This document shows, in pieces, positions 35,419 through 43,279 of a DNA stretch of 64,000 nucleotides; position 1 is the first letter of the stretch, and every line of letters begins with the position of its first letter. A program made the position numbers and the translations under genes. The stretch lies in contig CAXXWQ010000004.1 in assembly GCA_963674945.2 (NCBI GenBank), forward strand, positions 1,472,001 to 1,536,000. Reading direction: 5' to 3'. The notes under the pieces were generated by a model, which had not been told where the DNA came from, did not search any database, and was given only the letters and a program-made list of their open reading frames with translations. This DNA is from an uncultured Desulfosarcina sp. GTDB lineage: Bacteria > Desulfobacterota > Desulfobacteria > Desulfobacterales > Desulfosarcinaceae.

Positions 35419-35645
35419 GTACCTCTTCCTTTTTACGATTTATTTTGTTTGCCAATTTATGTACACAAACACGAGGGCTGTGGTGAAATGGGAGATCCGG
35501 GCAGGTGTTGTTCGTGCACGTTGGGAAAAATAGGTTGCGTCGACCCAATTCCCGCGAATTCATTGTAAGGCATTTTTTCTTTGGATTTGCAGTTATACCT
35601 GTAACATATTCGCAAGAAAAAATACAGATGCAAGGTAAAACAAAT

Positions 35646-37247
35646 ATGACAACAAAGCTGAGAACCTGTGTTTCTCCGGCGGGTCGTTTTATCTTCGGGA
35701 TCCACCGGCCGACATTCACCTCGGATAATTTCCGCTTTGAAAGTTCACTTACCGACCTGGGTCTAATGCCCGATGGCACCCCATACCGCAACCGGGCCAA
35801 TTTTCCCGAAGGCCCGGTACAAGAACCATCGGCGGACTGGATATTCGAAGTTCCCAACGCCTTTCCCTTCCGGGGCACGACCTACATCGGGAAAACCTGG
35901 GCCGATTCTCGTGCCAAAAGTCCCGAACATATCCGGTTGCCCGAGGCGCCGGAGATTTCTTTCTTTTCGGGTTTCGAAGATGAAGCCTCGGCCATGGGAG
36001 CGATCCAAAAGCTCCCCCGCCCCCTTCACCTGGCCCTGGCCGTCACCTCAACCGATCCGCGGGACCTGTGCTGTCTGGCCCATATGGCCTGCACATTTTT
36101 CATGGATGAGACCAGCGGCGCCCCATGGGGATTGGCCTATGAACGCCGAAACGACGGAAGGATGAAGGCCGTTATCACGGACGAAGCGCTGTTCGAGGCC
36201 GTGGCCAACAACCGCCACCTGCCCGGACCCTACAAGCAGGCCATGGTTCTTCGTCCCGGCGCCCAGGGGGAAAGCGAAATCGTCGGCGAATGGCAGGGTG
36301 AGAACACCCATGTGTTCGAGTATCTCAGGCGCAACTCCTACATCCCCTGGGGCCACTATGCAGCCAACATGGCAAACGACGCCGTGCGGTACCGGGTCCG
36401 GGACATCACCCTTTCGGACATGACCGGCATGCGCCATCTTTACTATCAGCGAAGCTATACCCGCATGGCGCGGCAGTTGGGAATCCATCTTGAACCCGAT
36501 GCCGGCCCCATCGATGCCAATGCCCTGGAACGCATCCGGCAGCGCATCCAAAACACTCCTTCCGCCCATGGGGACCTGCCCTTTGACAGGACCTTGTGGG
36601 GATGGAATTACGGATTCGATTTCGCTCCCAGCGGGTACCGCCTCCACGCCTCCCACCAGCAGATCCACCAGCAGTATGCGATGATTCCAAAAACCGTCCC
36701 GATAAACGGCGATACGGGTCGAATACCGGCATTTGCATGCGGTGACATGGTGGCCGAATTCATCAGTGAATTCCGCAAGCAGACGGGAAAAGGCTTTTTC
36801 GATTGCTATGAAAAGGCGATTGTTGAAAACCAGCGGATGGACGGGAACGATGAACGGGAGAAAAGCCTGGTGATTTTTGAGGACGAACGGGTCATGGTAT
36901 TCGTACCCAAGGCGCAGACATCCCAATGGGAGTTACAATTGATGCCCAAGCTTTCCGTGGGCAATATATTCGATTCGGACACTGCCATGCGCCACAGTCT
37001 GGACCGGGCCATATTGGTTGCCGTTCGGACACTGGCACAGATGGGGGCGAGGATGATCACCACCATCGAGTACGCCAAACCCATATTCGACGGAGATGAT
37101 GAGCAGCGGCTATTGATGGCATTTTTGCCGAAACTGCCCGAATCCCCCGGTGCCTTCAGCGAAGCCCAATTGCGCTGGATCAACGGCCACTATCCGGAAG
37201 ATTTCGCCCTCGCCTGCCGACGCAAACAGACCGAAACCGAGAAATGA
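35646..37247 (+). CDS. Hypothetical protein with a GalT/HIT-like C-terminal region
   Basis: HASHQQIHQQ resembles the GalT HxHxQ site; VIFEDERVMVFVPKAQTSQWELQLMPK resembles the second half of GalT. The coding call is confident, the function tentative. Confidence 0.55.
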   Translation: MTTKLRTCVSPAGRFIFGIHRPTFTSDNFRFESSLTDLGLMPDGTPYRNRANFPEGPVQEPSADWIFEVPNAFPFRGTTYIGKTWADSRAKSPEHIRLPEAPEISFFSGFEDEASAMGAIQKLPRPLHLALAVTSTDPRDLCCLAHMACTFFMDETSGAPWGLAYERRNDGRMKAVITDEALFEAVANNRHLPGPYKQAMVLRPGAQGESEIVGEWQGENTHVFEYLRRNSYIPWGHYAANMANDAVRYRVRDITLSDMTGMRHLYYQRSYTRMARQLGIHLEPDAGPIDANALERIRQRIQNTPSAHGDLPFDRTLWGWNYGFDFAPSGYRLHASHQQIHQQYAMIPKTVPINGDTGRIPAFACGDMVAEFISEFRKQTGKGFFDCYEKAIVENQRMDGNDEREKSLVIFEDERVMVFVPKAQTSQWELQLMPKLSVGNIFDSDTAMRHSLDRAILVAVRTLAQMGARMITTIEYAKPIFDGDDEQRLLMAFLPKLPESPGAFSEAQLRWINGHYPEDFALACRRKQTETEK

Positions 37248-40059: not shown

Positions 40060-41422
40060 CGACAGCTTGGCGCCTTCCGTCCTCGTCGTTGACGACGATC
40101 ACAATGTCCTGGAGGTGCTGGATGCCCGATTATCCAACTGCGGCCTTCGCGTATACCAGGCAGATGGCGGACACAAAGCCCTTACCATCCTCAATAACCA
40201 TGAAATCGACCTCGTCGTTTCCGATGTAAAAATGCCCGATCTCGATGGCATGGCACTCTTATCCGAAATCATTCAGAACCAGCCGGGACTTCCGGTTATC
40301 CTCCTAACCGCATATGCCAACGTTCCCGATGCCGTCAAGGCCGTTAAATCCGGAGCCGTGGATTACGTGGAAAAGCCTTTCGACGGAAAAGCGCTGAGCG
40401 AAAAAATCCAATTCATGCTCAAAGAGTTGCAGGATCCGGTCCCGAATCAGCAGATGGCGGAACCCTTCAAATTGGATGCCCAATTCGTCAGCCCTGCCAT
40501 GAAGAATCTGGAGAGGCTGGTTCAAAAAGTCGCCAAGAGCAGTGTAAATGTCTTGATTCTTGGAGAAAGCGGCGTGGGAAAGGAGCGAATCGCCAAACAG
40601 CTCCACCAGATCGGCCCTCGCCACAAAAAACCCTTCGTTGTGGTCGACTGTGGTGCGACACCGGCAGGTTTGCTGGAAAGCGAACTATTCGGCCACGTCA
40701 AGGGCTCTTTTACCCATGCCATCAGTGACAAGACCGGACTCATCGAAACGGCGGACACCGGAACGCTCTTCCTCGACGAAATCGGTAACATCTCCCATGA
40801 AATGCAGATCCGACTTCTCCGGTTCATCGAAGACCGAACCATCAGAAAGATCGGGGGACTGAAAGGGAAGACGGTGGACTGCCGGATCATCGCCGCCACC
40901 AATGCGGATTTGGCGGAGGAAATCAAGGAGGGTCGATTCAGGGAAGATCTCTTTTTCCGCCTTCGTGTCGTAACGTTGACGATACCCCCACTTCGGGAAC
41001 GAACTGCCGATATCCCCCTTCTGGTTGAACATTTTTCCCGTCAGTTCAGCGCGCAACACGGCGTCGATGAAGTTCATATCCCCAGAGAAACCATGGATTG
41101 GCTCTGTCAATACCCCTGGCCCGGGAATGTCCGGGAATTGAAAAATGCCATAGAGGGCGGTATCGTGCTATGCAGAAAAAATGTGCTCCGACCCGAGGAT
41201 TTTCACCTGATGGGGATGGTACAGAATGTGAGTACAACCGTCTCCGACGATCAGTGTCTCTCTTTGGAGGAGAGTGAAAAGAACACCATCCTGCGGGCCC
41301 TGGAGCAGACCGGTGGAATTCAAAAAGAGGCGGCCGAAGTACTGGGCATCAGCCGGCGGGCCATCCATTACAAGATAAAAAAATATGGTATTGATGCGGG
41401 CAGCATCAAGGCCAGGCACTGA
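40034..41422 (+). CDS. Sigma54-dependent response regulator (REC-AAA+-HTH)
   Basis: VVDDD, SDVKMP, GESGVGKE, ESELFGHVKGSFTHA, WPGNVREL and an HTH. Confidence 0.95.
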   Translation: MNNLKIKNNDSLAPSVLVVDDDHNVLEVLDARLSNCGLRVYQADGGHKALTILNNHEIDLVVSDVKMPDLDGMALLSEIIQNQPGLPVILLTAYANVPDAVKAVKSGAVDYVEKPFDGKALSEKIQFMLKELQDPVPNQQMAEPFKLDAQFVSPAMKNLERLVQKVAKSSVNVLILGESGVGKERIAKQLHQIGPRHKKPFVVVDCGATPAGLLESELFGHVKGSFTHAISDKTGLIETADTGTLFLDEIGNISHEMQIRLLRFIEDRTIRKIGGLKGKTVDCRIIAATNADLAEEIKEGRFREDLFFRLRVVTLTIPPLRERTADIPLLVEHFSRQFSAQHGVDEVHIPRETMDWLCQYPWPGNVRELKNAIEGGIVLCRKNVLRPEDFHLMGMVQNVSTTVSDDQCLSLEESEKNTILRALEQTGGIQKEAAEVLGISRRAIHYKIKKYGIDAGSIKARH

Positions 41423-41680
41423 TCAATCCTTCCAAGCGACCATCTTCTTCGTTTTCATCCATGACGACAGCGGTGTGCGACCATTTTCTTCCCAAATTGA
41501 GCGATTAGCAGAATTATTTCAGAGAGTTGCTGAAATTCTGCGTGTAACCCGGTGGGTGGTAATTACAATACCGATAAATGCTAACAGCCAATTGCTGAAA
41601 GCGAACGGCGGCTCTTGGGATTAAAAATGTTGCAGATGGCAACACAGATAGCGAGCCGGAGACATTTGCAGATTAAATCA

Positions 41681-41706
41681 TGTAACCGAATCACCGATGC
41701 CTGTCT
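41681..41706 (+). promoter_or_regulatory. Candidate ECF-sigma promoter (autoregulatory)
   Basis: TGTAAC-N16-GTCT about 65 nt upstream of the small ORF/ECF operon. Confidence 0.45.
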
Positions 41707-41771
41707 CGTTAGCGGTACGTCGAAATATAAATGGACAACAATCGATGAAAGAAATATAAAGGGAACAAAAA

Positions 41772-41939
41772 ATGAAAGAAATTTTAATACTTTCGGCAGT
41801 TGTCTGCATCTGGGTCCTGCTCCAGGTCGTCGTTTTGCCGAAATTGGGTGTCTCCACATGAATGCGAGACGCTTGTCAGGTGACAAGCAAGAATGTCAAT
41901 GCCGAAGCCGCCAGAGAAAACCAGCGCCAGAGACAGTGA
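41772..41939 (+). CDS. 55-aa single-TM candidate selenoprotein (in-frame UGA at 41859-41861); absent from the ORF track
   Basis: RBS aaggga, then MKEILILSAVVCIWVLLQVVVLPKLGVST-U-MRDACQVTSKNVNAEAARENQRQRQ. A SECIS-like hairpin follows the UGA. Confidence 0.65.
41871..41888 (+). promoter_or_regulatory. Bacterial SECIS-like hairpin
   Basis: gcttgtc-AGGT-gacaagc: perfect 7-bp stem with a G-containing loop starting 16 nt after the UGA. Confidence 0.6.
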
Positions 41940-42510
41940 TTTTGACCTGATCCAGAGGATTACCAATGGTCGGCAGGACCTGTTCTACGAGTTGGTCAGA
42001 CGATACCAAAAGAGTCTGTACAACTTCGGCATAAAAATGTGTGACACCCCCAGTGATGCGGAAGACATGGTCCAAGACACCTTCTTGAACGTCTTTAAAT
42101 ACCTCGAGGGCTTTCGCTATGAAACAAAATTTAAAAACTGGCTGTATCGGGTCGCCACCACCGCCTGTCTGAAAAAGAAACGACGTTCCAAATTCGCTCC
42201 GGACAGAGAGCTTTCCTTAGACGACTTTCTCCCCTCCGCAGAATCGTCGATATCCATGGAACTTCCCCGTTGGGCCTCGCAACCATTGGAACAACTGCTC
42301 GATGAAGAGCTTGGCAAAGTCATCAAAACGGCACTGATGGACCTTCCGGAAAAATATCGACTCGTTATCGTATTGCGGGATATCGAAGGGTTTTCCACAC
42401 AGGAAGCGGCGGAAATCCTGGATCTTACCCCGACGAATGTCAAGGTGCGCCTGCACCGAGCGAGACTCTATCTCAGGGAAGCATTGAAGGACTATTATGA
42501 AAACGACTGA
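41893..42510 (+). CDS. ECF sigma factor
   Basis: DAEDMVQDTF, FKNWLYRVA, LPEKYRLVIVLRDIEGFS and VKVRLHRAR. Confidence 0.95.
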   Translation: MSMPKPPEKTSARDSDFDLIQRITNGRQDLFYELVRRYQKSLYNFGIKMCDTPSDAEDMVQDTFLNVFKYLEGFRYETKFKNWLYRVATTACLKKKRRSKFAPDRELSLDDFLPSAESSISMELPRWASQPLEQLLDEELGKVIKTALMDLPEKYRLVIVLRDIEGFSTQEAAEILDLTPTNVKVRLHRARLYLREALKDYYEND

Positions 42511-42769
42511 TCCGCATCCTGACCACGACCATTGCATGGAACTGTTTCAATATTTATCCGAATATATTGACAGGGAGCTGGACGCCACCACCCGCATGAA
42601 GATCGAGGCACACATCCAATCGTGCAAGCCCTGCCAGGTTTGTCTGCGAACATTGAAACAAACGGTAAATCTGTGCAATCATCTTGAGCGGCATCAAGTG
42701 CCGGCATCCTTTTCCCACAAGCTCAAGGCCGCCATCGATAAATTCGTGAAGCAACGACCACCCTTATAG
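42497..42769 (+). CDS. Soluble zf-HC2 (ZAS) anti-sigma factor
   Basis: LSEYIDREL...HIQSCKPC (HxxxCxxC); no TM segment; overlaps the sigma gene. Confidence 0.9.
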   Translation: MKTTDPHPDHDHCMELFQYLSEYIDRELDATTRMKIEAHIQSCKPCQVCLRTLKQTVNLCNHLERHQVPASFSHKLKAAIDKFVKQRPPL

Positions 42770-42940
42770 CGGATGGGTTGGATTTTGGGCTAATTGCCGA
42801 AAAAACAAGAACATGTTGGTGTTTCACCCGTTTCGGGTAAAACCGGTTGCATTGCATCCTGTGCCCGACAACCACCGGGGAATCCGTTCCGGCCACCCCA
42901 AGTGGTTGTGTTAGGATTTCATGCAGCACACTATATTCTG

Positions 42941-42970
42941 TTGACAAAAGCAGCAAAATGGAAATAGACT
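42941..42970 (+). promoter_or_regulatory. Putative sigma70 promoter
   Basis: TTGACA-N18-TAGACT about 310 nt upstream of the hybrid kinase. Confidence 0.5.
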
Positions 42971-43279
42971 GGTTCAGTCTGGCATTTGATCGTTCGAGTT
43001 GTGAATTCCCACTGAATTGGCGGCGGCTGTGAACATTGCCTTAGACCTGACATGCCTTACCAAGATGATTGATTCTCCATTGCGAAATGGCGGGCATCGG
43101 CTTATTCCTGCCGCTCCCCGACCGATAACCTGTCCAAGTTTCCCGACGACGCCATCGAAGCCCTCCCTTCACCCACGAAAAAGTAAAAAACAAGGCCGAT
43201 ATTTCCCCGGTCTTTTTTTATTCGTATCATTAGTGGATCGGTACTTTTTGCACCGAACTCAGCCATCCAGGAGCGCTTC

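Follow-up and report, generated by a model that had tools for sequence, protein, structure and literature searches.

In the 64,000-nucleotide stretch of Desulfosarcina DNA analysed here (the window), we identify a gene for a predicted 55-residue, membrane-anchored selenopeptide that leads into and overlaps the gene for an ECF sigma factor, which is in turn overlapped by the gene for a soluble zinc-binding anti-sigma factor. The comparative sequence evidence makes it nearly certain that the in-frame UGA of the peptide gene is read as selenocysteine (Sec). With less assurance, we consider it probable that the peptide is a thiol-redox effector, switched on by the sigma factor as the first product of a three-gene overlapping operon, and not the sensor that controls that factor.

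The selenopeptide gene and its predicted product

On the forward strand, the peptide gene (41772..41939) begins with an ATG at 41772, preceded by the Shine-Dalgarno (SD) site AGGGA at 41760..41764, a feature common to the peptide starts of sigma-linked loci (pairing at or below -5 kcal/mol at 63 of 66). It runs through LPKLGVST-TGA-MRDAC, with the TGA at 41859..41861, and stays open until a second TGA at 41937..41939. The ribosome-binding site, start codon, transmembrane helix, motif around the TGA, extended frame and overlap with the sigma gene that the original prediction had described are all confirmed in the sequence. Positions 41400-43000 are also matched without a single difference by a public contig, possibly the source of this DNA. 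The predicted product combines one N-terminal helix with the motif LPKLGxxT-U-M-x3-C, in which Sec30 and Cys35 form a U-x4-C pair, and a charged, unstructured tail, which is of low complexity and unconserved among relatives. The helix reaches a best 19-residue Kyte-Doolittle mean of 2.99 and spans residues 2-24 in the AlphaFold model (pLDDT about 89); a further helix modelled in the tail was not trusted (pLDDT 53-58). Because a cluster of basic residues follows the helix (4.1 Lys/Arg on its C-terminal side versus 0.6 on its N-terminal side), the U-x4-C pair is predicted to lie on the cytoplasmic face of the membrane.

No paralogue of the peptide was found in its own genome. The window peptide gave no Pfam match and no Rfam match of note, 19 family members gave no match against NCBIfam, and a word-index homologue search with the 55-residue sequence, which is short and divergent for such indexing, returned no match. 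An alternative frame that would open at an ATGA overlapping the UGA was rejected, as stops interrupt it in several relatives.

Predicted Sec recoding of the in-frame UGA

The Sec machinery on which the original prediction depends is encoded in the genome, which carries selA, two selB genes and a Sec-type selD, over cut-off, together with two tRNA-Sec genes. Both selB genes are full (G000:C3:439046-440938 and C3:570751-572646), and one of them adjoins one of the tRNA-Sec genes (C3:572702-572793 and C3:722697-722794); two selB genes each are found in three other genomes as well (G068, G179 and G197).

A homologue profile built from 17 relatives matched 144 of the 301 genomes of the phylum and 124 of the 151 genomes of the order. 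We inspected 90 phylum loci, comprising the 30 best and 60 hand-picked ones weighted toward weak matches and matches reported as stop-free. The UGA column held TGA in 87 of these and TAA in one, a weak match (L081, score 14.8), the motif being absent from the other two; conservation of the codon as TGA, on which the selenoprotein reading turns, is thereby borne out. Conservation also extends downstream of the codon. Across 82 distinct loci without a sigma gene, the frame after the UGA remains open for at least 14 codons in 81 (the other two frames giving 42 and 34), and a Cys codon falls within codons 4-7 in 68 (versus 0 and 7), with both TGC and TGT in use. The first Cys after the UGA, tabulated for 149 distinct Sec loci, lies at +5 in 118, at +6 in 13, at +7 in four and at +9 or +10 in three; the other 11 show no Cys among the 12 residues that follow the UGA, so that not every member has the U-x4-C pair.

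A database search covering 1.84 billion representatives returned 966 matches, each a cluster at 50% identity. Among the best 150 of these 966 proteins, 106 end at the UGA column, while 20 have Cys there, 20 Trp, two Gly and two Ser; the Trp and Gly residues were set aside as probably produced by gene calling under codes 4 and 25. Cys homologues were also located at nine loci in named assemblies from several phyla, so that Cys aligned to the UGA is found by both routes. A selA match was present in three of these nine genomes and a selB match in two, and five have neither. Three of the nine Cys forms (L135, L140 and L141) retain a SECIS-like hairpin, in genomes with partial Sec machinery, and are possibly recent Sec-to-Cys changes. 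A Cys homologue searched against plasmids gave no match.

As 279 of the 301 phylum genomes carry selA, its co-occurrence with the family is uninformative. No selA match was obtained in nine genomes, namely all four of genus g45 (G068, G109, G145 and G179; completeness 61-79%) along with G103, G173, G197, G206 and G334. The eight of these that were checked, all bearing the family, carry selB as well as tRNA-Sec over cut-off. In g45, where every genome lacks the match, selA may be divergent or its place taken by another route.

Were the UGA a real stop, the gene would yield a 29-residue membrane peptide, and the conservation beyond it would stem from RNA structure or from the start region of the sigma gene. 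Such a reading would suit the 106 database proteins that end at this codon, though gene callers do exactly so, as well as the ATG found as codon +1 in 46 of 82 loci and the TAA of the single weak locus. However, codon +1 is also CTG, GGN, GCN or ATC, neither TAA nor TAG occurs at the 87 other loci, Cys homologues exist, and the open frame and its Cys are kept where the sigma gene is absent and the hairpin differs in sequence and position, all of which makes a real stop very improbable. The selenoprotein reading, by comparison, is backed by the Sec machinery, the kept TGA, the Cys homologues, the coding conservation downstream and the enrichment of SECIS-type hairpins.

The SECIS-type hairpin

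A bacterial SECIS-type hairpin, GCTTGTC-AGGT-GACAAGC, occupies positions 41871..41888 of the forward strand, with seven pairs, an energy of about -10.5 kcal/mol and the loop AGGU (41878-41881) 16 nt past the UGA. It includes the Cys35 codon and AGGTGA, the sole SD-like word preceding the sigma start. In every respect it fits the bSECIS consensus given in the available text of PMC13188914, which specifies a G in the first two loop positions, a loop 16-37 nt after the UGA, a stem of at least four pairs and an energy at or below -7.5 kcal/mol. Taken alone, the hairpin does not significantly exceed shuffled sequences in stability (z -1.2 to -1.9), so its significance rests on the family. A simplified bSECIS test based on the consensus in that text was applied with cut-offs of -5 and -7.5 kcal/mol. 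At -5 kcal/mol, hairpins were detected at 70 of the 82 sigma-free loci, against 55 of 600 true TGA stops from this genome and 73 of 820 codon shuffles; over all Sec loci the figure was 109 of 149. The stricter cut-off retained 45 of 82 sigma-free loci versus 24 of 600 true stops. The enrichment thus holds for the family, whose hairpins vary widely in sequence and position.

Among 66 sigma-linked loci, the four inner stem pairs are kept in 65-66 and the three outer pairs in 51-53, and one inner pair shows a T-A to C-G change in five. The sequence, coordinates and 16-nt loop distance given in the original prediction stand, but its description of the hairpin as perfect applies only to this locus and some relatives.

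A previously catalogued family

The selenoprotein is hidden, as first proposed, only with respect to annotation, the family already appearing in published selenoprotein lists. Identical sequences in these lists establish that it has been predicted before, as a catalogue entry without function. Two entries in the deep-Sep sequence file, which is headed 'all known selenoprotein sequences' and in its available part mentions the family six times, are letter-identical to the peptides of L030 and L033, the former 69% identical to the window peptide. The shared helix, LP(K/R)LGxxT-U-(M/L)-x3-C motif and length show the catalogued family to be the same. A 2016 list places the family in five organisms (PMC5029168, supplementary file 4, in its available part), an identity that holds by name only, and BSepDB may list it as well. 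For the catalogued family, neither a function nor a topology, and no mention of Cys homologues or of gene context, turned up in the searchable text; in the parts available, its name is absent from Table 1 of a 2026 review, where no entry matches, and from the deep-Sep family table. We found no published link between the peptide and ECF or anti-sigma factors, the word 'sigma' being absent from the main texts of the 2026 review and deep-Sep, and an arrangement with an ECF start under a SECIS was not found described in the literature searched. In the ESM Atlas, a single cluster without a name was found (123 members, 0.91), which we take as a lead only.

The sigma/anti-sigma pair and its linkage to the peptide

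The ECF sigma gene (41893..42510, forward strand) has two candidate start codons, an ATG at 41893 (+34 relative to the UGA) and another at 41899 (+40), the latter favoured by conservation; it is in the +1 frame relative to the peptide, and its start falls within the post-Sec tail. The protein has regions 2 and 4 only and matches TIGR02937, PF04542 (Sigma70_r2) and PF08281 (r4_2) over cut-off. The anti-sigma gene (42497..42769, forward strand) overlaps the end of the sigma gene by 14 nt and encodes a zf-HC2 protein (PF13490, over cut-off). The motif of zinc-binding anti-sigma (ZAS) proteins is defined as (C/H)-x23-26-H-x3-C-x2-C, and the encoded protein fits it with C13-x25-H39-x3-C43-x2-C46, followed by an extra C49. 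The two genes adjoin in 69 of 70 loci (tblastn), and among the 25 best NCBIfam matches listed no equivalog exceeded its cut-off.

In 83 of 84 distinct genomes, the TGA peptide lies directly upstream of the orthologous sigma gene (67/67, after removal of three duplicates, plus 16/17), L265 being the single sigma locus without it. Seen from the peptide, the association is rare: a sigma gene is nearby at only 5 of 88 phylum peptide loci, and among the 151 genomes of the order the peptide is present in 124 and the sigma factor in 54, with 70 carrying the peptide and no sigma match. The three-gene operon of the original prediction accordingly describes this lineage but not the phylum. In three same-genus genomes (L262-L264), the peptide gene and hairpin are intact and the sigma gene is absent or a remnant, and the peptide motif is identical with and without a linked sigma gene. 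Frameshifted or decayed sigma genes behind an intact peptide gene were observed at L151 (G016), L263 and L264. At L266 (1744 and 1969) and L267, two tandem selenopeptide genes precede the sigma gene, the second alone overlapping it.

Elsewhere, the neighbours of the peptide include thioredoxins, AhpC/TSA proteins, ArsR, DsrE, DUF302, NrfD and zinc ribbons, and phylum-wide they are diverse and often non-redox (GlnRS, TrpRS, SSB, MobB and a 3D domain); the domain scan of neighbours and putative targets covered 44 proteins chosen by hand. The commonest neighbour outside the sigma lineage is an FmdB-type zinc-ribbon gene, which lies on the same strand just upstream of the peptide at eight loci of different families (L055, L061, L109, L123, L125, L128, L130 and L131). 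Because the sigma gene is mostly absent, the peptide survives its loss and the neighbours elsewhere are varied, the genomic contexts indicate that the peptide has a role of its own and was recruited to the head of the operon in one lineage.

Promoter and candidate regulon

Upstream of the peptide gene, positions 41681..41707 of the forward strand hold a predicted ECF-type promoter, TGTAACC-N15-GTCTC (TGTAAC-N16-GTCT at 41681-41706), whose putative function is suggested by its conservation. Within the genus, the pattern GTAAC-N15-18-GT(C/T) precedes the peptide at 24 of 25 sigma-linked loci, and it does so at none of 83 loci without a sigma gene. Among another 42 loci, almost all from outside the genus, five have it in strict form and 12 in relaxed form. 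At L265, which has no peptide, a similar site lies directly before the sigma gene. The proposed autoregulation is thus supported by motif conservation within the genus, but the motif is patchy outside it.

The exact pattern also precedes a TolC-type gene, ccdA and a YgaP-like gene, each in single relatives; the scan of relatives gave 16 extra sites, of which 10 were inspected, and a reversed control pattern gave nine matches. In relaxed form, with a -10 box set after viewing the sites of this genome and with kin as the compared genomes, the motif stands upstream of ccdA in 19 of the 28 genomes that represent the genus. All 19 are among the 23 that have the sigma factor, the five sigma-free genomes have no such site, and in none of the 28 does the motif lie inside ccdA. 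The YgaP-like gene was rejected as a conserved target, the relaxed motif preceding it in only 3 of 26. Genome-wide, the motif shows no excess, with 17 sites, four of them intergenic, versus 15-39 and 3-8 in controls. Since the counts match controls, the pattern is post hoc and the genomes are kin, a small thiol-redox regulon is offered as a lead only.

The -35 element GTAAC(C) and an oxidative-stress context recall ECF16 (Caulobacter SigF and Bradyrhizobium EcfF-OsrA), for which the available text of PMC3420878 gives a -35 motif of tGTAACc / GTAAC(g,a) and a -10 motif of CG(A/T). In contrast, the -10 box here is GTCTC/GGCTC, that is, G(T/G)CTC, and the anti-sigma factor is a soluble zf-HC2 protein instead of a six-helix DUF1109 protein, which places the present pair outside ECF16.

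Two other features of the window may be recorded. An intergenic element upstream of the promoter (41481-41570) has four copies elsewhere in the genome, 79-86% similar, and looks like a small dispersed repeat. A 580-aa ORF at 35505-37247 has no Pfam match and contains a HLHASHQQIHQQ-like histidine motif (YRLHASHQQIHQQ), which we take to be reminiscent of HIT/GalT nucleotidyltransferases.

The sigma start and possible selenium gating

With distances measured from the UGA's first base, the sigma ATG is found at +40 in 50 of 66 loci, at +34 in seven, +37 in three, +43 in four, +46 in one and +53 in one; 65 of the 66 therefore fall between +34 and +46, mostly about 10 nt past the hairpin, and the window carries both the +34 and the +40 ATG. 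SD pairing at or below -5 kcal/mol was found at seven of these sigma starts, versus 63 of the 66 peptide starts, and wherever one of those seven sigma starts has it, the SD coincides with the AGGTGA formed by the loop and 3' arm of the SECIS. The anti-sigma start is SD-poor as well (18 of 64, with rough start picks), so loss of the SD is not special to the Sec junction. From the sigma ATG onward, the distance to the read-through stop is mostly about 35 nt and reaches 77 nt; at L149 and L276, which belong to one family, the sigma ATG and this stop form an ATGA overlap. Two loci (L274 and L275) lack a sigma-frame ATG between +34 and +46 and have a strong new SD followed by an ATC at +43, a possible non-canonical sigma start.

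The coupling of Sec read-through to sigma translation that the original prediction raised fits this geometry. Only ribosomes inserting Sec would unwind the SECIS, pass the SD-less sigma start and re-initiate there, making sigma synthesis proportional to selenium. The prevailing +40 spacing, the SD-poor sigma starts and the two ATGA overlaps favour such coupling, and the Treponema fdhF gene, in which selenium control acts via translation past the Sec codon according to the available text of PMC3892789, provides a precedent. Yet the roughly 35 to 77 nt between the sigma ATG and the stop are long for re-initiation, an A-rich linker could permit independent initiation, and the anti-sigma start is SD-poor too; the fresh SD of L274 and L275 and the peptide-free sigma locus L265 also speak against it, and the fixed spacing would be explained equally well by one overlap that arose in an ancestor and was then locked in by dual coding. 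We regard read-through coupling as a tentative proposal, one that is compatible with the effector reading, as both can hold. Alternatively, SelB-GTP-Sec-tRNA seated on the SECIS might block the sigma start, so that sigma would rise when selenium is scarce. The hairpin ends 4-16 nt upstream of the sigma ATG, a distance that lies inside the ribosome footprint at a start codon, and E. coli selAB is repressed through a SECIS-like leader (as cited in the available text of PMC13449736). However, the hairpin sits within a translated frame and would be cleared at each Sec insertion, the ATGA overlaps of L149 and L276 favour coupling to read-through, and the putative targets (ccdA, TolC-type, YgaP-like) are not selenium-uptake or sel genes; occlusion by SelB is, in our assessment, distinctly unlikely. 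Both the E. coli selAB operator and Treponema primitia fdhF, as far as the available texts describe them, resemble the present locus in having either a SECIS beside a start of translation or a Sec codon ahead of sequence that may rely on read-through to be expressed; they differ from it in that the SECIS here is a predicted recoding element within a translated frame and the downstream gene encodes a transcription factor.

The remaining alternative concerns the peptide itself, which could be a membrane sensor or reductant of the anti-sigma factor, its U-x4-C pair exchanging with the zinc-cysteine site and setting sigma activity. This would agree with the retention of the peptide in front at 83 of 84 sigma loci, with the predicted cytoplasmic position of U-x4-C and with an anti-sigma factor that is soluble and has no sensor domain beyond its zinc site. 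On the other hand, 83 of 88 peptide loci have no sigma gene nearby, 70 genomes of the order are peptide-positive and sigma-negative, the motif is unchanged with or without a sigma gene, the tail is unconserved and of low complexity, and RsrA-type anti-sigma factors sense directly, oxidation of their zinc-cysteine site freeing the sigma factor. We judge a sensor unlikely: the three genes of the U-x4-C module first envisaged do occur together in the lineage, but its assignment as a dedicated sensor gives way before a peptide that outlives loss of the sigma gene. Because the peptide usually occurs without the sigma factor, it is more plausibly a thiol-redox output, and the linkage in 83 of 84 genomes could reflect a functional tie tighter than 'target gene' implies.

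Proposed mechanism

Under the effector reading, SelB would bind the hairpin and insert Sec, a step for which the comparative evidence is strong, producing the U-x4-C pair just past the helix, where the basic residues that follow would hold it at the cytoplasmic membrane face. The anti-sigma factor would likely retain the sigma factor until its zinc-cysteine site is oxidised. The freed sigma factor would then transcribe from TGTAACC-N15-GTCTC, serving its own operon and, as motif co-occurrence suggests, a small regulon including ccdA. Within this response, the motif and neighbours of the peptide point to a membrane-tethered selenolthiol/selenosulfide redox couple. As each of the three genes overlaps its neighbour and the two later ones mostly have no SD of their own, sigma translation likely relies on ribosomes coming from the peptide gene.

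The arrangement may work like SigR-RsrA of Streptomyces, in which an ECF sigma factor is likewise followed by a soluble anti-sigma factor of about 90 residues with C-x25-H-x3-C-x2-C, and the candidate target ccdA found here belongs to thiol redox. The comparison extends to mode of action and not to orthology: RsrA is a weak match only (TIGR03988 at 31.5 bits versus a 62.5-bit cut-off; PDB 5frf at E 0.00056), the promoter differs, and here a selenopeptide gene leads the operon and overlaps the sigma start.

Implications for the family and its operon

The family is far larger than the catalogue suggests, with 144 of 301 phylum genomes matched and 966 database clusters (50% identity) versus the five organisms of 2016. 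Almost all annotations cut it short, and it is among the smallest membrane-anchored bacterial selenoproteins; being large, mis-annotated as truncated and very small, it merits both a model and an assigned function. The operon itself, with ccdA, would constitute a first candidate regulon for an unstudied ECF/zinc anti-sigma pair. It also offers a clean and inexpensive way to ask if the synthesis of a transcription factor encoded downstream can be controlled by Sec recoding; selenium supply may influence the amount of sigma factor made. Should read-through coupling prove true, the SECIS would double as a gate for an SD-less ECF start, and a thiol-stress sigma factor would be made only with Sec insertion; conceivably, the Sec codon would then work as a switch that lets selenium decide if a transcription factor is made, and a stress regulon would become tied to selenium availability by way of the genetic code.
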